From Ostreococcus lucimarinus (taxonomy: Eukaryota): a stretch of DNA of 64,000 nt. The translations under genes and the position numbers were made by a program. The notes beneath the pieces are model-generated. The model was not told the origin of the DNA, searched no databases, and saw only the letters and a program-made list of their open reading frames with translations. The first letter of the stretch is position 1. Each line of letters begins with the position of its first letter. The stretch lies in assembly GCA_000092065.1 (NCBI GenBank), contig CP000593.1; one strand, written 5' to 3'. This document shows positions 23,107-55,696 of the stretch, in pieces.

Positions 23107-24333
23107 ATGGCGTCGACGCGCGCGATCGCGGGCGCGGGATCGCGAATCGACGCGAATCGACGCGACGCTCGCGAGCGCGCCGCGCGCGTCGCTCGACCGG
23201 CGACGCGACGCGCGCGCGACGACGACGCGGCGGAATCGGAATCGGTGTCGGAACCGGGGTCGCGCGCGCACGCCGGCCCGCACGACGTCGTCGTGAAGCG
23301 CACGACGCCGCGACCGACGCGCGCGGTGGCGCGCACGGGCGCGGTGGCGACGAAGAGCGCGAAGGCGCACCGAAGGCAGCGCGCGTGGGCGCCGGACGCG
23401 CTGGAGTTTCACGGGCTGGTGCGGGCGCGGCGGGAAGATTTGGGGACGCGCGCGAACGAGGACGAGAGGGAAAGATTCCCGTACGGCGATGGATTCGCGT
23501 TCGCGAGGGCGACGTGCGAGACGGAGACGATGGTGGCGCTCGCGACGGCGATGGTCGGGGAAGAGCGACGCATGCGGCTGGAAAACGTTTTGGAGCATAG
23601 AAGTTTTTCGTTGCTGCCGATTCTAGAGGGCGTCTACGACGTCGGCAATATCTTGGCGGTGTGTCGGACGACGGAGGCGCTGGGGATCGGGTGCGCGTCG
23701 ATCGTGAGCTCGAAGGGGCTGTCGTTCAAGGCGAGCGGGAGGACGTCGGGAGGGGCGCTGAAGTGGCAACACGTGGAGCAGTTTGAGACGTCGGAACGCG
23801 CGCTCAGAGTCGCGAAGGCGAAAGGATACCGCGTTCTTACGACTGAGTTTGACGGCGCGCAGCCGCTGTCGCATTACGATTGGACCGTGCCCACGGCGGT
23901 GGTGTTTGGGAACGAGCGCGAGGGGGTTTCGGACGAGGCGCGAGCGCTGCGGGATGGCGCCGTGTACATTCCGATGTTTGGCTTCACCGAGTCTTTGAAC
24001 ATTTCCGTCGCCGCCGCGCTCGTGATGTCGCACGCCGTGACGGACCGGATCAACCGCCGAGGGTTTCACGGCGATTTGACTGAGGAAGAAAAACGTATTT
24101 TGCGCGGCGTGTACATGTCTAGGTTGATACCGAACTACGCAAAGCAAGGATATCTCGAAGAACTCGTCGAGCGTCATAGAAAGGGTCAAAAGCTCGCGGT
24201 GACGGACGACATCGATGTGAGCGAGGAAACACTCGACGAAATTGAATTGTTGACCGAACTGGACGCGGCCAAGTTGGTCGGTAGGCGCAAGCCGAAACGA
24301 GACCTGGGATGGGACGAGCACCTGGACGGTTGA
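23107..24333 (+). CDS. SpoU/TrmH-family RNA 2'-O-methyltransferase
   Basis: VVFGNEREGVS and ESLNISVAAALVM SPOUT motifs. ATG verified at 23107. TGTAA 3'-end signal shortly after the stop. Confidence 0.75.
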   Translation: MASTRAIAGAGSRIDANRRDARERAARVARPATRRARDDDAAESESVSEPGSRAHAGPHDVVVKRTTPRPTRAVARTGAVATKSAKAHRRQRAWAPDALEFHGLVRARREDLGTRANEDERERFPYGDGFAFARATCETETMVALATAMVGEERRMRLENVLEHRSFSLLPILEGVYDVGNILAVCRTTEALGIGCASIVSSKGLSFKASGRTSGGALKWQHVEQFETSERALRVAKAKGYRVLTTEFDGAQPLSHYDWTVPTAVVFGNEREGVSDEARALRDGAVYIPMFGFTESLNISVAAALVMSHAVTDRINRRGFHGDLTEEEKRILRGVYMSRLIPNYAKQGYLEELVERHRKGQKLAVTDDIDVSEETLDEIELLTELDAAKLVGRRKPKRDLGWDEHLDG

Positions 24334-24381: not shown

Positions 24382-27300
24382 CTACTTTCGTCTTCTGCTG
24401 CGACTAGAGGTACTTTTATTAGCAGGCGGAGTCGGCTCCACCGTTTTTCGTTTCTTCTTGTTGTCCGCGACTTCCGGTTCTGGTTTAGCGGGCGGCTTCG
24501 CTTCTTCTTCCGTCTTTGGCGGCTCCGGAGCTTCTTCAGCCGGCGGAGGCGCGGCTCGCTCCGGCGCTTTGTCCGTGTCCTTCGGCGCTGGACGGAACGG
24601 AACGTACGGAATACCTTGCGCCGCGCAGCACTCTGGGCAGGCAAACTTGACGTTTTCGGCGTTTTCGTCTTCCTCGCCCGGCGCCGGCGACTGCATGCCG
24701 ATGCACTCGTAATGAAACCAACCATCGCATCGATCGCAGCAAATCATCGGCCTGAGAGCGTCGTACGCGCTTCGGCAAACGCAATACAGTTCGCATCGCT
24801 CTCCCAACTCCTCGAGCTCCTCCTTCAAGTATAAAGGCAAAGATCGACCCTCTTGAAGCAGCAACTGCGCCGCCTCGATAGGAATCGTTTTGTCTTGCAC
24901 GACGGCGGCGGCGCGTTCGAGCCAGATTTGTCCAGCAACCTCCAACGCGTGCGCGCGATCGGCCAAAGGATCAATGCCGGCACCAGGGCAAAGACCAGCA
25001 GCCATGGCAGATTCCTTGAGCTCGTGAAGCTTGATCAACCTCGGGAACGGCGCACCAGTCATGAGCCGCGTGGCTTGTTCTCTCCACGCCGGACCGCACA
25101 CTTCGCGCATCAACGCGAGCGTCTCCTCAACAGGTTCCAGCTCCATCGCCAGAGCACCCTTCATGCCCGCGTACACTTGCAGCGCTGGATCGACATTATC
25201 TTTTCGAGGAATGTCATACGTGTAATCCATCTCTTGCTTGGGCATTCCAGACGCGTCGCCGACAAGCGATGGCATGGCCGGTTGCAACATGAACTGCTGC
25301 GGAACCATCATCGGTTCGTTCGTCTTCAACTGAGCAGACATATCGCTTGGACTACCATGACCCGTGGATGTTGAAGGTTCTTTGCCGGTGTCTTGCGCCG
25401 TCGGCGGCGGCATCATGCCAGACATTCCAGATAGTTGCAGAGTCGCTTCCATGAGCCAGTTGCTAGCGCCAACATTTGCCAGCTCTTCCTCGTGCTCGTT
25501 TGTCATCTTTAGATGCTGTTGCTGCATCATCAAGACGTGGAGGATGTGGGGCCTAGACCGAACTGGAGCCATGTGAATTTGAGCTTGGCACATCGCGAGT
25601 TGCATGGCGAGCTGTTGAAGTTGCCCGAGCTGCTTTGTGACGACATCTGAAATCTCCTGCGAACACGGCGAAATGTTCAACGCGTGCGTGCGCTGCGTTG
25701 CGGCGAACGTGACAGCTTGACCCATCAGCATGACTTGCTGTAATGGCGTGAGAGAAGCTGGAGGATTGGGGTTCTCTGCAGTCGCCGCGAGCGACGCTTC
25801 GGCGATTCGTCGTGTGCGTTCCTCAGATTCTCTCATCGCTGCTTCTTGGGCAATCTTCGAAGCTTGACTGATGGCGTTGTCGTGTGCTTCCTTCATACTC
25901 TTTCTATGCAAAGTCTTTCGTACTTCCAATCGCCACGCGTCGTGAGTATTGATGACTTGATTCAACACGGCTTCTTCTGGCACTTCTCCAGGAAATCGCT
26001 GCGCTTCACCGAGGAGTTCTCGCAAAAGCATGACGTTTGGGCGATTGGTGCGATGCACCGAGCGATACGTATCCAACGAGAGTGCGCTCGCCTTGCCACT
26101 CTTCGCGATGCATGGCGGACAGATGTAATTGTGCATCGTCTTTGCCATAGTAGGCGTCACATTGATACATTTTAAGTGATACCAGTCACCGCAATCATCA
26201 CATCCAACCATTTGAATTCCTCCAGCTTGTCGACAAAGGCAGAACTAACCCTCCTCCGTCTCCGGCGGTTCGCCAGTCCCGGTGATGTCTTCCACACCAG
26301 CTTTGATGGAATCAAGAACATTGCTCAACATTTCGATAAGCGTTTTTTCTTGTTTGACTTCACCCTGATCGTTTGCCCAGAGCAACGCGTTGAGCCTCTC
26401 CGTCCACGCCGTGGCGGCGTTGCACGCATTTGTGAGCGCTTGTCTCTCTGAGCACTTGAAGGTCAAATCTTCCACCTCCGCTAGAAGATCGTATAATTCG
26501 TCAATCGAAGGGCGAGATCGACCTTCAGCGACACTGTTCAAGCACTTACGAACGGTGTCGACCCACTGTGCGTGATCCGCCAACGACGCCTCGAGGTCTT
26601 CTACCTTCGAGACGTCAGCGGGAAGTGCCTTGCCTTCGGCGATGAGGGCGTCTATTTCCTCCGGTGATGCACTCGGAGCCAATCGACCGTCTTCAAGGAG
26701 AGGAGGATCGAGCAAACGATCCGCTTTCTTGCGCCATTCGTCCACAATCGTGTACCGTTTCATGATTTCAGCGACAAGATCCTCTTTCAAGTCTTGAAGC
26801 ACGTCGATTTCTTCCCTGAGCTCGTCCAAAACGGTGTCCTCGACGAGCTTCGCCTTGGGTGCAATGATCTTAGCGACGCGTTCTTCCCACTTGAGCGACT
26901 TTAAACGAATGCGAACTGTCTCCATGGCTGGTAATTCTAATCCAAAGTCTTCGTGCGAAAGTTCAAGCTCGGTCAACGTCACCTCGGCGCCGTCTTCTCG
27001 CCAGCGCTCGATGGCGTCCTTCGCGTCCACGTCCCACTCTTCTGCGGCTTCGACGCGTTCTTCCAAAGCTTCAACTTCCTTGACAAACAATTTCAAGTTC
27101 GAAGACTCTTTCATGAGCTCTTGCGCCTCGGAAAGCGGCGGAATCGGATTTGACACACCGCGACGAGTGAGCTGCTTTCCCTTCAAACAAGGTTGTGCAC
27201 GATCCAACCAAGACTTGGCTACATTGACCGCTTCTGAAAGCACGTCGAATCCATTCAGAAAGATTGGAATCGAGCTTCCTTCGCGGATGAGCGACGCGGC

Positions 27301-30300
27301 GTCTTCGAGTGACGGTCGGTCCTTACTATCGAGAGATTTGAGCATCACCGCCGCGCGCTCGTTCCACTTCTTCGCCGCGTTGATGTGGCTCTCGCACTGC
27401 GCCAGCAGCGCTTCTTCATCTGGGGCAACCTCTTTATCTTCGGAGTCGAGGAACTCGTTACCCGCCCGCACGGCCGCTTCGACTTCGGCGAGCGGATATT
27501 TCTTCGATGAAACCATGTCCTTCAATTTCTCTGCCAGCTCCCGGACGACGATACGGTTTCGCAACCACTCGACTTCGTCCACTCGCACGCTAAACTTTTC
27601 ACCCTCGACGAGAAGCATGTGCAAATCCGTCACTCTTGCTCCCGGATAATCACTCGCTCGAGCATGATCGGCCCACACTTTGACAGCTTTGATTTGATCG
27701 GCTAGTCTGTCGACCTCGTCGAGTTTTGTTGACAACGCCATGCCCTCCTTGAGAAGCGCCTCGGCTTCTTCCACGTCAACCTTGGCGACGAACAGCGACT
27801 CAGACTTTGCGCGCCAAAAATTCAACTCTTCTAAAGATTTGCGCAAAGTCAAGAGTTCGCTCTGCTGAACGGGTAATCCATGCGCCTCTTCGTATAACGC
27901 CTCGATCTCTCGAGCATTCGCTAGTTCCTCGCGCGGCGGGAGTTGTCGTCGTCCTGGAAGCGCGCCGCGCACCTTCGTGGACCACGCGCCTGCTCTAACG
28001 ATGACGTCCTTCAGCTTTTTATATGAAGGGACTTCCACACCAAACTTATTCGCTTCAGTTTGAAGCGTCGTACAAGCGCGAGGAGATGGATTCGGTACCT
28101 CGGCGAGAGCCGCCTTGATGCGTTCCTCCAATTTCAAGCCCGCCGCGAGCAAATCGCGGAAAGGTTGAGTATCAGCCTTAGGCATCGGTACCGGTGGGTT
28201 GTCAAGGAGCTCTTTTAGTCTGTTCAATCTCAATCGCGCTTCACCAGCGTCATCGTGCGCGGCCTCGGCACCAGCACTGGATCCAAGCCTTTGCTTCAGC
28301 GCCACAAGACTCGTCTGCCACGCGACGGCGTTCGTCACGCGAGTGTACGCTTCTCGAGCCGCCTTCATATCAGCACCACCCCAAATAAACTCTTCACCCG
28401 CAGCGAGTAAATTTCTCATCTTGTCCAGCGGCGGCAAAGGTGGTTTGACGAGCTCTTCGCCCACTCGTTTCACCCAAGCCTGAGCCTTCTTGACGAGATT
28501 CTTGTTCACTGTGACTGAGTCCAAGTCGCTGTGCTTGGATTTTAAGCTGGCTAGTTCCTTCTGAGAAAGCGCCTTCTCCGTCTTCTTCACCAGACTTTCT
28601 AAATCAGCCACTGTTTCTCTGTAAAACATCGTCTTCTTCGACATCGCACATTTGCACAAGTCGTTGACGTGTCGCAAGCACGCCTTGCGCGTCTCGTCGC
28701 ACGAGCACCCGACGCCAGACGAGTACAAAATGTGTCGACAAACAACGCACTCATCGGATCCAGAGTTCGATGCATCGTCAAACCTAGATCGTACTTTACG
28801 AGGCTTTTCGCAGCCATCGTCGTCGTCGTCGTCGTCTGCTGACGTCATTTGCGCGCTGCGCGTCACGCCAGACGCGAAAAGCTCGGCGCGACCGTTTGCC
28901 TCTTCAGCGTACAAGCGCGCAATCTCGGGCCACAAGTGCGGCGCTATGCTCGAACTAGGATTGTTTGCTACTCTGCAAACCAACTCGTCGTGACTAAACA
29001 ATGAACGCTTGGCGTACGATCGGTTTCTCTCCACGCTCGCCGAGCCCTCTGGGAGCCAGTCAGCGGGCACAAAGTTGACGCTCTCCGTGCAGTTCAATCC
29101 ACAGTTGAACGACGCGTAGTACGCCCCGGGATACGTCACCACGTATTCTCCTGGGAATTGCTCCAACGTGTGCACGGGCACTCCCGCGCTCATCAAGAAG
29201 CTCGGCGAGAGCATCGTAAAGACGCTTCCCAAATCGTTGACGTGCGCCTCGTAGACGTCGGGCATCACCTTCTGGAAGCATTCTTCCAACTTGTCCGCTG
29301 CACTCGCCGGCACGCAGTACCACAGTTTCGCGGCACCCCAGTGATTGTAAGTGATACTGTACATGTTATGCTCTTCTCGACGCCAAGTCGTGGAACTAAA
29401 CGTGCTTCCGACTTCTAAGAATGGCGTCGTCACGCCCGCCACGTCATCCTTCAACGCGCCCAGTAGCGACGACTTTTCCCCACTCGCGCGCGCGACGTTG
29501 TTGAGATTCCATTTCGACTCTGACCAGCGCTTGATAGATTCCGGGCTCACGCCGTCAATCTTTACCTGAAGCGCTTCGCCGTGTCTCGGGAACCCGCTTC
29601 CGTACTTTGTCGTGTCAATCGCCGTGCCGCATTTGACCTCGCAAACATCATCCACCGAGCTCGCATCTTCAACCATTCGCCAGAAACACTCCTCAATCAC
29701 CTGCATATCGATCCCAGTTCGCTTGGCGTCCTCGCCAAAGAACGCCGTATCAAATTCTATGCACGCCTCGTTGAAATCGCCGAGCGTAAACTGCGTCCCT
29801 TCATCCGCGCTCAATCGCTCCACCTCCGCGTCAATCTCTTCGCATCGTCCACAAAACCACTCTCCACTCGGCACTTCAGTCATCTTCGGCGTTAAGCAGT
29901 ACATATGTGACCTACGCGCGCATCATTCGTCAGTCTCGTCGCTCCTTCGCGGCTCCTTCTCCCCCGCGCGCCTCTAAACCCCACGTCTAACCGTCGCCCA
30001 CGCGCGCGTTCGCCGCGCCCTCGCGCGCCGCGCGAGCGCTCTCTCTCCCCGAACGCGCGTCCGAACGATCGAGATAATTTTCACGCGCGCGTTCTCGCGT
30101 GGCATTGTCGTATACGCACCCTCGATCGCACCCATCGCACAGGATCATCGCGTCTTCGTTCCCGCTCGCGCCGCACACGTCGCAGTCGGCGTCGCCCTCG
30201 GGCGCGTCCGCGAGCTGCGAGGCGACGAGATCGAGGCCCTGCGTCGCGAAAACACGCGCCGTAAAAGTCAGTCGCACGTCATCGCGACGCCCATCATCGC

Positions 30301-50103: not shown

Positions 50104-52402
50104 CTAACAGCGCTCGAAAATTTTGTACAACTGCTCGAGGCACGCGATCTGAATGACGGTGCCGTCGTCGGCGAAACGACGAGGCGGGGCGAGACGGCGC
50201 TTCATCGCGGGAAAGACGCAGAGGCGAGCGACGCGACGAGCGTCGGACTCGGCGTCGCCTTCTTCGGCTTTCGGATCGTGGAAAGAGCAGTCCATGGCGA
50301 AAAATGCGCCGATGACTCGAGCGCAGGTTTCGAAGCACTCTTTTTCACTCGTCCAATCGACGTCTTCGGCGAGGGCGAGGACGAACTCGGGAAGTTTGCC
50401 GATTTCCGGCGCGTACCCGGGAAGCATCGACGGCACTCCGGTGATCTGACGCCGTTCCTTGTCGATGACGACGCCGAGATACTCCTTGAGCATGTCCGCC
50501 TTTTCGACGAGCATCTCTGCGATTTTCTCTGCGACTTCCTCCTTGGAGCCATCGCTCGCGTCCCACTCTTCGTCGTCGACGAATTTATCCTCCAGCGCGC
50601 ACAGCGCGAGTTCGGCCAAAGACGCGGGATCTTGCAGCGATTGGTACCCAAAGTTGGCGAAGTTCTTCAAAGCCATTTGATGGAACATTTCCTCGGTGAG
50701 CTTTACGGCGTCCACCATGAAGAGCTTGGTTTGGTGCTGAAGTAACCACACGCCTTTGCGCGCGTCCACGGCGCCGACGAGTGTGTGATTTTTAATCACG
50801 TCGCCGAGCTCCTTGTGCGCGCGATTGGCGATTTCGGTGTTAAGCTGGCGAATAGACGTCAACTCGCACACGTACGTGTCTTCGGGTTCCGTGCGCTGTC
50901 CTCGACGCTCTCTCACCGCGCGTCGAACCTCTTCTATTTTCTCGTGTTCGCGTCCCTCGGAATTCATCGCTCGCTGCAAGTACGCGTCCAAACTCCCCGC
51001 TGCTAAATTCGCATCCGTGCGAACGAGCTTGTGATCACCACCCGCGCGTTCGCGCTGTGTCCGCATCGTCTTCGCCTGCGACGCCGGCGGTTCGTCCGCT
51101 TTTTCGCTATTTTCCTTGTCGCCGCTTCGCTCGGCGTCGTTTTCGTCATCCTTCTTTGCCAGTTTCTCCGCGCCAGGAAGCAGTGTTTGCACGGTGAATG
51201 TTCGCGACGAATTCGTCGCGAGAAGAATCTTCTCTAGTTTGGACTGAATCAACTCCACAATGGCTTCTTGGTGCAGAAAGTGCACCTCCTGTTTCGTGGG
51301 ATGCACGTTGACGTCGACGTCTTCAAACGGCAGGCGGAGGTGCATGAATACAAACGGCTTCTCAGCCTTGGGGAGTATCGCCGCGTACACCGACTCACAC
51401 GCGCGCTTGAGCGGCGCGCACTCCACTAAACGCGAATTGATGAACAAAATGAACGTCGTCTTCTTTGAATGATAATTCCCACCGCTCACTAAACCGTCCA
51501 CTTGCAGCTTGAAATCAAACTTTTTCTTGGACAGCTCGCTGTCGAAGTCGAGCTTCTTCAAATCTCTCGCCACCGTGGGACCGTAAATCGCCTGCAACCG
51601 CTCGACGCGCGATTGCGCCACGGGAGTGTGCAACGTCGCTCGCGACTCACCGTGCTTCCGACACGTGAACGCCACATCCGTTCGCAACGCCGCGTACCTC
51701 TGCAACACCTCGAGCACTTTCGAGTACTCCTCTGACGCGCTCTTCAACGCCTTCCTTCGAGTCACGACGTTATAAAACAAGTTCTCCACGCTAATCGTAG
51801 TTCCTAACACCCCCGCGATCGGTTTCGCCCCCTCCGCATCCATCTTCCCATCCGTATACGTCGCTCGAGTCGCGTGCGTCGCCCCCGCCGCCATCGTCGT
51901 CGCCGACACGTGCGCCACGTAGCTCATGCTCGCCAGCGCCTCTCCTCGAAACCCAAAGCTCTCGCATCGCGCTAAATCCTCAAACTTTTCAATCTTACTC
52001 GTCGCGTGTCGCTCGCACAGCAGCGGCAAGTCCTCTATTCGCACTCCGTGTCCGTCGTCTTGCACTCGCAACAGTTTATTCCCGCCCTCCCTCGTCGTCA
52101 CCGCGATCGACTTCGCGCCCGCGTCCAACGAGTTCTCCACCAGCTCTTTCAGCGCGTTCGACGGTCGATGGATCACCTGCGCGCGCGTTCGGTCGTCGCG
52201 TCGTCTCGCGTCGTCAGTCGCGCGTTCGCGTCGTCCGTCGTCGAGCTGACGTTCAAACATTCAATCTCTCATCGCGCGCGCCGTCGCGCGCCGGCCCTCG
52301 ACGCACCTCTCCCGCGGCGACGCGATTGACGACGTCGCTCGGCAGGCGCCCGATGGCGCGCGGCGTCGACGCGCCGTCGCGCGCGCCGTCACCGCGCGTC
52401 AT
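50104..52402 (-). CDS. MLH1: DNA mismatch repair protein MLH1; 2 exons 52402..52307 and 52176..50104
   Basis: Exon 1 MTRGDGARDGASTPRAIGRLPSDVVNRVAAGE restores the MutL N-terminal block (VVNRIAAGEVI), then VIHRPSNALKELVENSLDAGA, GFRGEALAS, C-terminal ...LEQLYKIFERC. ATG verified (complement of 52400-52402). Confidence 0.85.
52177..52306 (-). other. Spliceosomal intron (130 nt) in MLH1, holding the misleading ORF-track start at 52260
   Basis: Donor GAG|GTGCGT, branch GCGACTGACGACG, acceptor GCGCGCAG|. Phase 0. Confidence 0.75.
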
Positions 52403-52713
52403 GACGAATCCTTTCGCCGCACACCGCGTCGCGCTCTGCCGCGCGCGCGCCGTCGGGCGCGCCCGCGCGTCGACGCATGCGCGCCGCCGCCCGCGCGCGC
52501 TCGCCCGCGCGCTCGAGCGCGCCCGCGCGCGCCGTCGCGCGCCGTCGACCGGCGCCGATTCGCCGCCGCCGCGCCGCGCGCGCCGACGCGACCGCGACGC
52601 GCTCGAGCGCCGACGACCGCGACGCGCTCGACGCGTTCGCGCGCGCGACGCCGCGCGCGACGCGCGCGTTCGAGCTCCTGCGCGAAAGCCGACGCGCGAT
52701 CGACGCGGAGGCG

Positions 52714-53454
52714 ATGACGGCGATGTGCTACGTCGGCGCGATTCGGCGTCGGCGCGCGACGCGCGGCGAGACGGCGTGCGTCGCGAAGATTTGTGAACGG
52801 TGGAGCGCGCGCGTCGGCGGGCGACTGGGACGCGTGCGAGCGTCGCTGGAGGCGGAGGATGGGTCGGCGGCGGCGCGAGCGGTGGCGAGGGAGGTGGGAA
52901 AGTGCGAGGCGGAGGCGACGGCGCTCGCGCGGCGATTCGCGCACGAGGCGATCGAGGCGACGGAGGCGTTCGAGACGCGCGAGGCGGCGGACGACGCGAC
53001 GACGTCCGAGGCGCGCGGTGACGGTGACGGTGACGGTGACGGTGACGGCGTGAATGGGATACCGGAGAAGTGGCGCATGGCGTGCGGGAACGTGAACGGA
53101 TACTTGGAGTACGCGGGGGCGACGTTGACGTTTGAGGAGTGGGCGCGGGTGCGCGAGGCGTTCGACGCCGTCGTGACGGAGGTGGACGGGGACGACGCGA
53201 GCGCGCGGTACGTGCGCGACGATGGGAATTGGAACGCGATGAAGGCGATGATGGATGATTCCGTCGTGCGACCGAGAAGGCTGTCGCAGGTGGAGAATAA
53301 CGCGCGGTACGCGAACGCCAAAGCCGAGCTCGACGAGGCGAAAAAGGCGTGGAAGGAGGCGAACGAAATTTACAAGGACGCGCGAAGGAGAATTAAGCAG
53401 GCCAGGCACGAGGTGCACAAAACGCGCAAGGCGGTGAGAATAGAGTACAGATGA
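52714..53454 (+). CDS. Hypothetical protein with a (GD)n run and Lys-rich C-terminus
   Basis: ORF 52477..53454, with ATG at 52477 only 75 bp from the MLH1 ATG. Arg/Ala-rich N-terminus may be presequence or non-coding. Internal ATG verified at 52714. C-terminal ...AKAELDEAKKAWKEANEIYKDARRRIKQARHEVHKTRKAVRIEYR looks genuinely coding. Confidence 0.3.
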   Translation: MTAMCYVGAIRRRRATRGETACVAKICERWSARVGGRLGRVRASLEAEDGSAAARAVAREVGKCEAEATALARRFAHEAIEATEAFETREAADDATTSEARGDGDGDGDGDGVNGIPEKWRMACGNVNGYLEYAGATLTFEEWARVREAFDAVVTEVDGDDASARYVRDDGNWNAMKAMMDDSVVRPRRLSQVENNARYANAKAELDEAKKAWKEANEIYKDARRRIKQARHEVHKTRKAVRIEYR

Positions 53455-53510: not shown

Positions 53511-55319
53511 CTAAGGACGAGACGTCTTCAAAACCTCGACGCACCAGTTGCCGTGATCGTAATACGCCGCCGTGACCTCGCACCAAGGAAGGTTTTCAAA
53601 CAGCTTTGGAAGCTCACCCTCGGTGTACACGTGACAATATCGCTGATACACAACCGATCGTTTCTCGCGATCGGCCTCACCGTGCGTGGGCGCGCCGCTC
53701 ACGCGCGATTGGCGCTCTCGCTCGTCCTCGGGCGCGACGCCCTTGACTTTGATCTTGTTATGAAACGGCACCAAGACGTCTTGGCCTTCAAATTGGTGAC
53801 CAGAAACCCCCCCTTGCTCTTGCTCGAGCGCCCAGGCGTAGAATAATGCGACACCACCAACCTTGACGATGCGCATCGTTTCCTTTACGAGCTCCACGCG
53901 ACGTTCGGGAGACGATATGTGATGCAACACGGCGATGTTGAGCGCGTAGTCGAACACGTCGGATCGATACGGCAAAATAACGGCGTCGGCCACCATTACC
54001 TCGTATCCGCTATCGCGACAGATTTCAATCAAGCCTCTGCTAAAGTCGCTTCCGAGCGCGAAACCACCGCCCTTGACGATTTCGGGAATGTTCTTACCGT
54101 TGCCGCATCCGACGTCCGCGGCGAGCAAACCGGGCGGCTGTTTCCTAACGAAAGCCTCCACCCCGGTCCACGCGCGATACCTCGTGCCGTGCCATTGCTG
54201 CGCGACGATATCGTACACCTTCTGCACGTGCTCGCGCTCGACTTCGGGCATCGCTGTCACCTTTTCCGCGGCGTCTATGAAATTTTCTGGCACCACGGCG
54301 CACGCTCGCTTGGGCGGCTTCTTCACCAACTCTGTCGCCGTCGTCCCTGCGTTCGACACGCTCGTTTTTACGGACGGCGACGGATTCTTCCTCGTCGCCT
54401 CTTCCATTTCGAGCGCATCCGACCGCTTACCTTCCTTGCGCAACTGTTTCGCCTTCTTACGCTCCTCTCGCGCCGCCTTGATCGCCGCCCTCTCGGCGGC
54501 GATGCTCTCGCGTCGTCTCTGCTCCTCGGAAACTTCCTTGGGTTCCTTCAACGAATCGTCTCGACCGACCGCGCGCTTTTCCCTATACATCGCTCGAAAC
54601 TGCTCCGTCATCGCCATCTGCGCCGCGATCGCGTCGCCTTCGGTATTCGCCGCCATTCGTCGTCTAAACGTGAGCGAAATCCTATCCTCGCTCACGGGCG
54701 GAATCGCGTGCTCGTACTCGTCCGCCGCCCTTCCCTCCATGCGCACCGCCGATTTCGCCGGAAGCACCACCCTGAACTCCTCCCCCTCATAAACGACCCC
54801 CGGATCCGGTTTTTCGTCCCCACTCGGCCACAGCATCCCTCGCCCCATCGTCATCGTCTGCGCGCTCGCCAACGAAACCGTCACAAACGGCCGCGCGAAC
54901 GTCGGATTATCGATGTGCGGCGGTATCCACTGTCCCTTCCCGTACACGTTCACCGTGCACGAATCCATCTTTTCATCCTTCCCGATCACCCCTCTCGCCA
55001 CCAGCGCGTCCAGCACGTCTTCAAACATCGCCGGCATCGCCGCTACGCGCGTCTCCGCGTCCACTCGGTTACTGTGCGTGTACGTCCCGTACTGCAGCAT
55101 CTCCCTCGACTGATCCCTTCGCGCCCACTTCGGCGGCACCGGCGCGTGCGTCTTACCCTCAAGCTCCCCTCGCCGTCCTCGCTCGAGCTCTTCCGCGACC
55201 CACGCGCACACCGCGTCGTGCAAACCGTCGTCGACGGCGTCTCGAAAGACCTCGGCGCCGATCGTTTCGACGTCCGCGCGCGTCGCGCGCGCCGCGGCCG
55301 ACGCGCCGGACGCCGTCAT
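53511..55319 (-). CDS. ALKBH8: ALKBH8-like bifunctional tRNA modification enzyme: AlkB-type 2OG-Fe(II) oxygenase N-terminal domain fused to a Trm9-type methyltransferase
   Basis: AlkB core NVYGKGQWIPPHIDNPTFARPFVTVSL...RISLTFRR; Lys/Glu-rich linker; MTase DVGCGNGKN...LPYRSDVFDYALNIAVLHH...VGGVALFYAWALEQE. ATG verified at 55319. Confidence 0.75.
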   Translation of the reverse strand: MTASGASAAARATRADVETIGAEVFRDAVDDGLHDAVCAWVAEELERGRRGELEGKTHAPVPPKWARRDQSREMLQYGTYTHSNRVDAETRVAAMPAMFEDVLDALVARGVIGKDEKMDSCTVNVYGKGQWIPPHIDNPTFARPFVTVSLASAQTMTMGRGMLWPSGDEKPDPGVVYEGEEFRVVLPAKSAVRMEGRAADEYEHAIPPVSEDRISLTFRRRMAANTEGDAIAAQMAMTEQFRAMYREKRAVGRDDSLKEPKEVSEEQRRRESIAAERAAIKAAREERKKAKQLRKEGKRSDALEMEEATRKNPSPSVKTSVSNAGTTATELVKKPPKRACAVVPENFIDAAEKVTAMPEVEREHVQKVYDIVAQQWHGTRYRAWTGVEAFVRKQPPGLLAADVGCGNGKNIPEIVKGGGFALGSDFSRGLIEICRDSGYEVMVADAVILPYRSDVFDYALNIAVLHHISSPERRVELVKETMRIVKVGGVALFYAWALEQEQGGVSGHQFEGQDVLVPFHNKIKVKGVAPEDERERQSRVSGAPTHGEADREKRSVVYQRYCHVYTEGELPKLFENLPWCEVTAAYYDHGNWCVEVLKTSRP

Positions 55320-55696
55320 CGCGTCGACCGCGCGCGTCGTCGTCCGGTTCCTTCGCTCGCGCGCGCGCCGAGGCGTCGAGCGTCGCGCGACGCCGCGCGA
55401 AGCGACGCGGTGTGCGCGCCGCGCGCCGTCCGTCGCGCGACCTAAACCGTTTTTTTTTGCCGATTCGGCGCCGGCACGCGCGCGTCGCGACGCGACGCGC
55501 GCGACGACGGGCGACGCGACGCGCCGAAAACGATGGATCGCTTCGTTTTCGACGCCCCCGCGCGCGCGACGCGACGCGCGCGCGACGCGACGCGCGTCGA
55601 AGGCCGACGGCGGCGCGCGCGACGGACCGTTTTTATTTTACTCGAGCGCGAAACGCACGTCGACGGAAAACGCGTCACACGGCGACGCGCGCGACG

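Follow-up and report, generated by a model that had tools for sequence, protein, structure and literature searches.

A fused oxygenase–Trm9 methyltransferase gene of ALKBH8-like architecture, apparently built convergently from an ALKBH5/ALKBH9B-clade oxygenase

The minus strand of the 64,000-nucleotide stretch of DNA analysed here (hereafter the window) carries, at positions 53511 to 55319, a single gene coding for a protein of 602 residues, in which an N-terminal Fe(II)/2-oxoglutarate (2OG) oxygenase domain of the AlkB superfamily is joined by a basic linker to a C-terminal S-adenosylmethionine (SAM)-dependent methyltransferase of the Trm9 type. Judged from its sequence, the encoded protein looks like an oxygenase–Trm9 enzyme of ALKBH8-like architecture, built convergently from a domain of the ALKBH5/ALKBH9B clade. 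A preliminary description, made from the letters of the window, had presented it as an ALKBH8-like protein in a green-algal setting and as a possibly distinct fusion. The uninterrupted 602-residue open reading frame (ORF), the AlkB core with its H-x-D...H signature, the Lys/Glu-rich linker and the C-terminal Trm9-type methyltransferase announced in that description have all been borne out: the ORF starts with ATG and contains neither a frame shift nor a stop between its two halves. The motifs readily recognised in the protein are NVYGKGQWIPPHIDNPTFARPFVTVSL with H135-x-D137, a second iron-binding His (H204), DVGCGNGKN and AVLHH. The gene comprises the following features, numbered along the window:

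53511..55319, minus strand: complete coding sequence of the fused oxygenase-methyltransferase, 602 residues plus stop (stop at 53511-53513), from the ORF listing, Pfam and the homologues
54624..55286, minus strand: N-terminal Fe(II)/2OG oxygenase domain, residues 12-232, ALKBH5/ALKBH9B-like
54663..54950, minus strand: catalytic core of the oxygenase, with N124 and Y126 (2OG binding), H135-x-D137 and H204 (Fe ligands), and R213-x-S-x-T-x-R219 (2OG binding)
54255..54623, minus strand: basic Lys/Arg/Glu-rich linker, residues 233-355, devoid of a zinc-finger motif
53514..54254, minus strand: C-terminal Trm9-type SAM-dependent methyltransferase domain, residues 356-602
54093..54116, minus strand: SAM-binding motif I, DVGCGNGK, residues 402-409, read from the sequence
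53547..54182, minus strand: span of the Trm9 active site, R380, D425, H466/H467, W496, F519, R560, C562 and N591, mapped onto the essential residues of the yeast enzyme ScTrm9

Both halves are recognised by Pfam, as found in the profile scan that the preliminary description had proposed as a check. The 2OG-FeII_Oxy_2 domain occupies residues 71-219, with E = 3.9e-14 and 53.8 bits where 31.2 would suffice, and Methyltransf_11/25 residues 401-493, the Methyltransf_11 match itself covering 402-493 (E = 1.4e-12, 48.5 bits where 21.2 would suffice); for both halves these scores are far above chance. A scan of the whole fused protein against NCBIfam, which is little informative for a eukaryote, gave just weak sub-threshold matches.

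The fusion is by no means restricted to the window. In a homologue search of 5.8 billion proteins at a threshold of E <= 1e-5, 173 database proteins match the fused protein, and the near-full-length ones all possess both Pfam domains. More than 150 fused homologues, with identities down to about 37%, come from independent assemblies and lineages; several clusters share 68-76% identity with the query, AT-rich Bathycoccus-like clusters about 48% and GC-rich Micromonas-like ones 45-50%. Complete fused ORFs also occur on single MMETSP transcripts (P0109, P0137 and P0138, the last two in a cluster 75% identical to the query), which answers for close relatives the question whether the two halves are transcribed as one gene. 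Copies differing by one residue (M98I) were encountered in marine metagenomes (Tara Oceans, JGI), where more than 100 contigs, the longest of 531 kb, encode them; the genes next to them are those of the window, in identical order on independent Tara and JGI contigs. Residue 98 is Met in the window protein and Ile in the near-identical copies examined (P0001, P0003, P0007, P0013), a strain-level polymorphism owing to which the exact window sequence has no database entry. Entries reduced to a single half exist as well (P0066, P0239), some with the oxygenase only; P0239 looks like a truncated gene model, since its sequence is nearly identical to the beginning of the fused protein P0077 and departs from it further on. 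Because the fusion recurs in so many homologues, including those encoded on single transcripts, it is not an artefact of gene modelling, and the locus contains one real, old fused gene.

Named members of the fused family include those of the green alga Cymbomonas tetramitiformis and of the pelagophytes Chrysophaeum taylorii and Aureococcus anophagefferens. The homologue clusters would fit an Ostreococcus-like member of the Mamiellales as the source of the window, in line with the green-algal context of the preliminary description; that context is incomplete for the family, which is not confined to green algae. Public databases currently name the fused proteins 'alkB family protein 8' (JGI) or 'SAM-dependent methyltransferase/AlkB'. 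Pelagophyte-like members (P0262 from Aureococcus, P0111, P0112, P0115, P0117 and P0118) open with a run of hydrophobic residues and then basic ones, e.g., AAAAAVVAVALLRRRRRKK or VVVWWRSQRW, which resembles a membrane anchor or targeting signal and does not occur in the window protein.

The oxygenase half displays the hallmarks of the AlkB superfamily, namely the H-x-D...H iron triad, the N-x-Y and R-x5-R residues for 2OG and the jelly-roll fold, and the canonical R-I-S-L-T-F-R motif is retained in the fused family. None of the residues N124, Y126, H135, D137, H204, R213 and R219 varies among the non-redundant fused proteins (35/35), and the AlphaFold2 (AF2) model of residues 12-232 has a predicted local distance difference test score (pLDDT) of 95.1. 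Since all the Fe and 2OG ligands are conserved, the domain should be active, a prediction that can be made with considerable confidence.

For the methyltransferase half, Trm9 from Yarrowia (YlTrm9, 5cm2_Z) is by a wide margin the best solved relative: the single sequence matches it with E = 7e-29 and the family profile with E = 3.6e-46, the next match reaching 49 bits; identity amounts to 39% over the fold. The motif DVGCGNGK, invariant in the family alignment, aligns with DIGCGNGK of the Yarrowia enzyme, and the AF2 model of this half has a pLDDT of 86.9. Eight residues of ScTrm9 are essential, their replacement by Ala abolishing function (Létoquart et al., PMC4678810). Once these were mapped onto 47 non-redundant members of the fused family, R29, D72, H116, W145, R241 and N271, corresponding to R380, D425, H467, W496, R560 and N591 of the query, turned out to be invariant in 47/47, whereas the position of W168 is occupied by Phe in 40 members and by Trp in 7 (F519 in the query). 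The non-essential residues H115, R122 and Q149 are also invariant, and the motif WALEQ is conserved. As the R29/H116 dyad, which orients the carboxylate of 5-carboxymethyluridine (cm5U), is conserved together with N271 and H115, which recognise uracil, that part of the active site is intact. Compared with the Trm9-Trm112 enzymes of yeasts and plants (ScTrm9, YlTrm9 PDB code 5cm2, AtTRM9), the fused protein thus shares R29, D72, H115/H116, W145, R241, N271 and WALEQ, but differs by its N-terminal oxygenase and linker, by the change of Y243 to Cys and D270 to Gly, and by the mostly Phe-occupied W168 position. The C-terminal half is, with high confidence, predicted to be a Trm9.

The linker of the query is 123 residues long, with a Lys plus Arg fraction of 0.24 versus 0.12 in the two domains; across 155 fused proteins the median length is 128 residues and the fraction 0.23. 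A zinc finger of the ALKBH8 type was sought in this segment and rejected: the motif C-x-C-x(4-8)-C is found in 0/155 fused proteins, as opposed to a C-x-C-x6-C zinc finger in 8/8 eukaryotic ALKBH8 references of the type containing an RNA recognition motif (RRM). No match to the Pfam domain RRM_1 occurs in the query or among the 120 homologues listed, and the 11 residues ahead of the oxygenase domain leave no room for an RRM.

As to the clade of the oxygenase, the solved structure nearest to its fold is ALKBH5, and the family profile scored against the PDB yields 63.6 bits for ALKBH5, with the whole domain aligned, and 56.8 bits for ALKBH8. In profile searches of large databases, the nearest non-fused relatives are land-plant proteins (E of about 1e-41). 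One of them, P0268, matches only ALKBH5 in the PDB, and its relatives at 57-73% identity, from dozens of plants, bear the names 'RNA demethylase ALKBH9B(-like)' or 'ALKBH5(-like)'. Labelled AlkB references, drawn from the supplementary data that accompany Mielecki et al. 2012 (PMC3265494), were scored on a hidden Markov model (HMM) of the fused family; in supplementary files 14/15 the 'ALKBH9' file appears to duplicate ALKBH10, and the ALKBH9B labels were obtained instead from NCBI and UniRef names. Scores decrease from about 160 bits for ALKBH9B-like proteins to 87-99 for ALKBH10, 48-61 for animal ALKBH5, 39-60 for ALKBH8 (43.7 for that of O. tauri and 39.2 for that of O. lucimarinus), 24-28 for ALKBH6 and 15 for AlkB. 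Pairwise BLASTP of the oxygenase gives E = 3e-22 with a plant protein and E = 2e-07 with the ALKBH8 of O. lucimarinus.

Insertions and deletions tell the same story. The second Fe-binding His is separated from the first Arg of R-x-S-x-T-x-R by 8 residues in the query, as it is in 31/35 fused proteins; ALKBH9B-like proteins (53/53) and ALKBH10 also have a spacing of 8, ALKBH5 has one of 10, ALKBH8 one of 19-22 and ALKBH6 one of 22. Helix 1 is followed by a segment whose 25 residues in the fused family compare with 23-24 for ALKBH9B/10, 17 for ALKBH5 and 9 for ALKBH8, and the lid region RGRRG.L..TY..P.KW aligns with ALKBH9B-like proteins. With respect to R130, K132 and Y139 of ALKBH5, the alignment, in a register uncertain by one residue, brings R72, an Arg without variation, and Y80, a Tyr kept by most members, close to R130 and Y139, while K132 is conserved neither in the fused family nor in the plant ALKBH9B-like proteins. 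In a neighbor-joining (NJ) tree of the oxygenases (135 taxa, 218 columns, 200 bootstraps), ALKBH8 and ALKBH6 form a group that leaves out the fused family (87%), and the fused proteins group with their closest methyltransferase-less relatives (55%). An ALKBH8-type oxygenase is contradicted by the fold, the profile scores, the pairwise BLASTP, the insertions and deletions and the lack of both RRM and zinc finger, and the domain is very probably not an ALKBH8 orthologue. None of the 20 subfamily FASTA files of the 1,943-sequence AlkB census (Mielecki et al. 2012, PMC3265494) contains the signature motifs of the fused family.

The fused protein and animal ALKBH8 thus have in common an architecture, and the likeness is one of architecture only: a single polypeptide with an N-terminal AlkB-superfamily oxygenase and a C-terminal Trm9-type methyltransferase. 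Animal ALKBH8 is organised as RRM-AlkB-ZnF-MTase, i.e., RRM, oxygenase, zinc finger and methyltransferase (PMC4051686, PMC3177185), whereas the fused protein is devoid of the RRM and of the Cys-rich zinc finger, and its oxygenase appears to belong to another AlkB clade. [quoted passage not shown] Of the distinct fusion envisaged in the preliminary description, the lack of an RRM stands; the succession of AlkB and methyltransferase, being that of animal ALKBH8, is not what sets the fusion apart. The ALKBH8-like identity proposed there fits the architecture alone, as the oxygenase sits with ALKBH5 and the plant ALKBH9B/10 proteins by fold, profiles, BLAST and indels. With ALKBH5 and ALKBH9B/ALKBH10B, which are m6A (N6-methyladenosine) RNA demethylases, it shares the lid segment after helix 1, the short His-Arg spacing and identical Fe and 2OG ligands, but the fused family differs from ALKBH5 and ALKBH9B in forming its own subclade, lacking the K132 of ALKBH5, having a shorter loop after the G-x-Y-T motif and being joined to enzymes of tRNA U34. 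Plant ALKBH9B-like proteins contain only the oxygenase domain in Pfam, and ALKBH5 is a stand-alone enzyme.

Canonical ALKBH8 proteins devoid of methyltransferase (AtALKBH8, XP_003081872 from O. tauri, XP_001420257 from O. lucimarinus) supply another AlkB-superfamily oxygenase in the same lineages. The ALKBH8 file of the census lists canonical ALKBH8 from O. tauri, O. lucimarinus, M. pusilla CCMP1545 and Micromonas RCC299, of 232-418 residues. These four Mamiellales proteins possess the RRVKHFGY motif and the zinc finger and are too short to accommodate a methyltransferase domain; their RRM is weak in Pfam (18.3 bits in M. commoda, below the cut-off). Canonical ALKBH8 of plants and Mamiellales differs from the fused protein in being a separate gene of another AlkB clade, with a zinc finger and 39-54 bits on the fused-family HMM. 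AtALKBH8 makes (S)-5-methoxycarbonylhydroxymethyluridine ((S)-mchm5U) in Arabidopsis, and a canonical ALKBH8 would act downstream of the Trm9 activity of the fused protein. The occurrence of a separate canonical ALKBH8 in the reference genomes of Ostreococcus and Micromonas makes the fused protein an additional enzyme and not 'the ALKBH8'. If Mamiellales are the source of the window, this suggests that they combine a plant-like split ALKBH8 without methyltransferase and a second oxygenase welded to Trm9.

The same oxygenase subclade occurs in other fusions, which bear on its substrate. Among the best 150 library representatives of the oxygenase profile, two (P0302 and P0306) contain a rhodanese domain. 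P0306, of 901 residues, matches TIGR03167, the tRNA 2-selenouridine(34) synthase MnmH/SelU, in three stretches with 285.7 bits against a cut-off of 219.75. Its rhodanese domain (residues 21-145; PDB code 3g5j, E = 9.5e-18) precedes the oxygenase (residues 259-456), which in turn precedes a Walker A motif, GRTGVGKT, at residue 542. This order of rhodanese, oxygenase and P-loop, together with the split match to TIGR03167, indicates that in these other protists the oxygenase is inserted inside SelU. P0302 (420 residues) is a partial copy of the rhodanese/oxygenase arrangement, with the family motif QSREMLQFGAYTHSNRV. A TrhO-type rhodanese was considered as the partner in both proteins and dropped in favour of SelU/MnmH, which scores above the curated cut-off. 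The two oxygenases reach 199-207 bits on an HMM built from the Trm9-fused proteins only versus 135-152 on an ALKBH9B-like HMM, which places them in the subclade of the window protein. No description of a eukaryote-type SelU-AlkB fusion was found in the literature searched.

Both partners act on U34, Trm9 by modifying its C5 side chain and SelU by replacing the sulfur at position 2 with selenium. Two independent fusions with U34 enzymes argue for U34, and not adenine, as the target of the oxygenase, and suggest, as the best evidence at hand, that it acts on hypermodified U34.

In view of these relationships, the protein is proposed, with moderate confidence, to be a bifunctional enzyme of the tRNA anticodon loop whose fusion arose independently of that of animal ALKBH8. 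In the mechanism modelled on the Trm9/ALKBH8 pathway (PMC3177185, PMC4051686, PMC4678810), Elongator would supply cm5U34, and the methyltransferase half, with a Trm112 partner, would esterify cm5U34 and its 2-thio derivative cm5s2U34 into mcm5U34 and mcm5s2U34, a step assumed with high confidence. The tethered oxygenase would then act on the same tRNAs, at or beside the wobble U34, which is assumed with moderate confidence; the Trm9 module and the basic linker would provide the tRNA affinity that ALKBH8 draws from its RRM. As to the chemistry, a low-confidence candidate would be hydroxylation of the xm5 side chain (methylene) into an mchm5-type product, on another set of tRNAs or with another stereochemistry than (S)-mchm5U; oxidative removal of the methyl ester or of another alkyl group, or an N-demethylation like that of ALKBH5/9B, would be alternatives. 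That the substrate of the oxygenase is tRNA, at or near U34, appears rather likely; that it specifically hydroxylates mcm5U is doubtful. A bolder and still tentative idea, put forward because of the independent Trm9 and SelU fusions of the subclade, is that the domain founds a wobble-uridine-directed branch of the ALKBH5 clade which installs or erases a so far undescribed tRNA modification; the product may be hydroxylated mcm5s2U or its 2-seleno counterpart mcm5se2U, or an (R)-type mchm5U unlike that of ALKBH8, or else the domain may act oxidatively as an eraser, on the mcm5 methyl ester or on an S/Se-alkyl intermediate.

Several points weigh against a convergent enzyme of the anticodon loop. 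The functional assignment of the whole fused family is drawn from sequence comparison, and the nearest characterised relatives of the oxygenase, ALKBH5 and ALKBH9B, are m6A demethylases and not uridine hydroxylases. The hydroxylase of human ALKBH8 is inactivated by deletion of the RRM (PMC4051686), which makes RNA binding without an RRM an assumption for the fused protein. The coexistence of the fused gene and a canonical ALKBH8 in one genome is deduced from related named genomes. Among the fusions of the subclade, P0292 (592 residues) links the oxygenase to a C-terminal Methyltransf_16 domain (7-beta-strand, protein-lysine-methyltransferase-like, E = 9.5e-17); this partner is not obviously a tRNA enzyme, and the association with tRNA enzymes is therefore not exclusive. 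On the methyltransferase side, the position of Y243, an essential residue of ScTrm9 whose Ala mutant retains about 10% activity (PMC4678810), is occupied by Cys in 47/47 members (C562 in the query), just as that of D270 is occupied by Gly in 47/47. The change from Y243 to Cys appears as a family-wide signature of the methyltransferase, and the two replacements could represent either a synapomorphy of a single origin of the fused methyltransferase or a slightly altered substrate pocket. Finally, the loop after the Q-Y-G motif has 17 residues, a short length like that of ALKBH8, versus 28 in ALKBH5, and the grouping of the fused family with ALKBH9B, ALKBH10 and ALKBH5 receives only 7.5-8% of the NJ bootstraps. 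The phylogeny called for in the preliminary description has thus separated ALKBH8 and ALKBH6 from the fused family, but has left the deep order unsettled, and clade membership is for this reason not made to depend on the tree. Taking together this unsettled order, the short Q-Y-G loop and the lack of a conserved K132, the oxygenase is filed beside ALKBH9B/ALKBH5 as a distinct subclade and not as an ALKBH5 orthologue.

Other explanations have to be weighed against these data. An N-methyl (m6A-type) RNA demethylase, directed by the Trm9 fusion to m6A, 1-methyladenosine (m1A) or N6-methyl-N6-threonylcarbamoyladenosine (m6t6A) near the anticodon of tRNA, or co-regulated with an unrelated activity, would agree with the ALKBH5-like fold, with the plant ALKBH9B/ALKBH5-like proteins as nearest sequences and with the lid region common to ALKBH9B-like proteins. 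The non-conserved K132, a subsequent loop which falls short of that of ALKBH5 and of many ALKBH9B-like proteins by 8-11 residues, the separate subclade formed by the oxygenase and the fact that both informative partners, Trm9 and SelU, work on U34 and not on adenosine, make this explanation unlikely. A true ALKBH8 orthologue which has lost its RRM and zinc finger and still makes (S)-mchm5U as in animals has only a slim chance and is already largely refuted by the clade evidence; it could invoke the animal-like order of the two domains, the JGI name 'alkB family protein 8' given to many members, the significant match of the ALKBH8 structure 3thp to the family profile (E = 1.8e-14), the ALKBH8-like length of the Q-Y-G loop, and the Tetrahymena ALKBH8, which functions without an RRM (PMC4051686).

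Slimmer still is the chance of a non-RNA substrate, for an enzyme engaged in DNA repair or for one that hydroxylates or demethylates proteins of the translation machinery. The AlkB family does include DNA-repair enzymes, some ALKBH8-like proteins repair DNA (PMC4051686), and the Methyltransf_16 domain joined to the oxygenase in P0292 is typical of protein-lysine methyltransferases; yet Trm9 and SelU are both tRNA enzymes, and the closest characterised relatives act on RNA. That the fusion itself would be an artefact, due to two adjacent genes, a mis-assembly or a chance ORF in GC-rich DNA, has a negligible probability: the many long spurious ORFs of the high-GC window and the one-half entries P0066 and P0239 would speak for it, but the reading frame continues unchanged from one half to the other, the architecture recurs among homologues of independent lineages, complete fused ORFs exist on MMETSP transcripts, the gene order is maintained on long contigs, both halves fold with high confidence, and P0239 appears truncated from a fused gene.

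The surroundings of the fused gene conform to a eukaryotic nuclear genome with compact, mostly intron-free genes. The DNA around the gene has a GC content of about 66%, and the long antisense ORFs which overlie it, e.g., 53919..55445 (plus strand), lack homologues, as is common for spurious frames in DNA of such a composition. On one side lie MLH1 (50104..52260, minus strand) and a gene of 325 codons (52477..53454, plus strand) without any Pfam match, which is nonetheless called as a gene on independent contigs; on the other side are genes for a CS-domain protein, an Ndr/hydrolase protein and a Upf1-like helicase. Low-complexity, extremely GC-rich repeats with periods of 12-14 nucleotides occur at 52356-52668 and 53016-53048, and a perfect (CGGTGA)x5.5 microsatellite coding for GDGDGD lies within the 325-codon ORF. 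This repeat region beside the fused gene is the end point of many short-read metagenome contigs, which suggests an assembly breakpoint. Elsewhere in the window, a 2'-O-methylase of the SpoU/TrmH family (23107-24333, plus strand; PF00588, E = 2.3e-27) is also devoted to RNA modification and unrelated to the fusion, and two adjoining ORFs of the same strand (24382-29904, minus strand), one with JmjC, zf-C5HC2 and PLU-1 domains (26245-29904) and the other with two PHD fingers (24382-26211), look like a single gene for a KDM5-type histone demethylase with an intron or short gap in between. Rfam and tRNA scans of the 64-kb window found nothing.

Prasinophyte-type green algae and pelagophytes, from which the named members come, possess unusually large selenoproteomes, and mammals need Trm9/ALKBH8 chemistry to read UGA as selenocysteine. 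That selenoprotein-rich lineages and the SelU fusion hint at a tie between the oxygenase and selenium-related decoding is purely speculative.

In the literature, ALKBH8-type fusions are regarded as an animal innovation, the two activities being split in plants (PMC3177185, PMC4051686), and little is known on the tRNA-modifying enzymes of marine algae (2023 Micromonas study, PMC10735309); no paper on the fused family or on its distinct oxygenase was found in the literature searched. The gene described here would represent a second, convergent fusion of an oxygenase with Trm9, recruited from another AlkB clade, widespread in some of the most abundant picoeukaryotes of the ocean and experimentally tractable. 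The automated 'ALKBH8' labels of JGI are misleading as to the function of its oxygenase half. If the oxygenase acts on U34, the chemistry of the ALKBH5 clade would be extended from the N-demethylation of adenine to the modification of wobble uridine, and tRNA nucleosides as yet unknown would be predicted in phytoplankton. Should the domain indeed found a branch of its own directed towards wobble uridine, marine picoalgae would run two parallel oxygenase pathways on U34.

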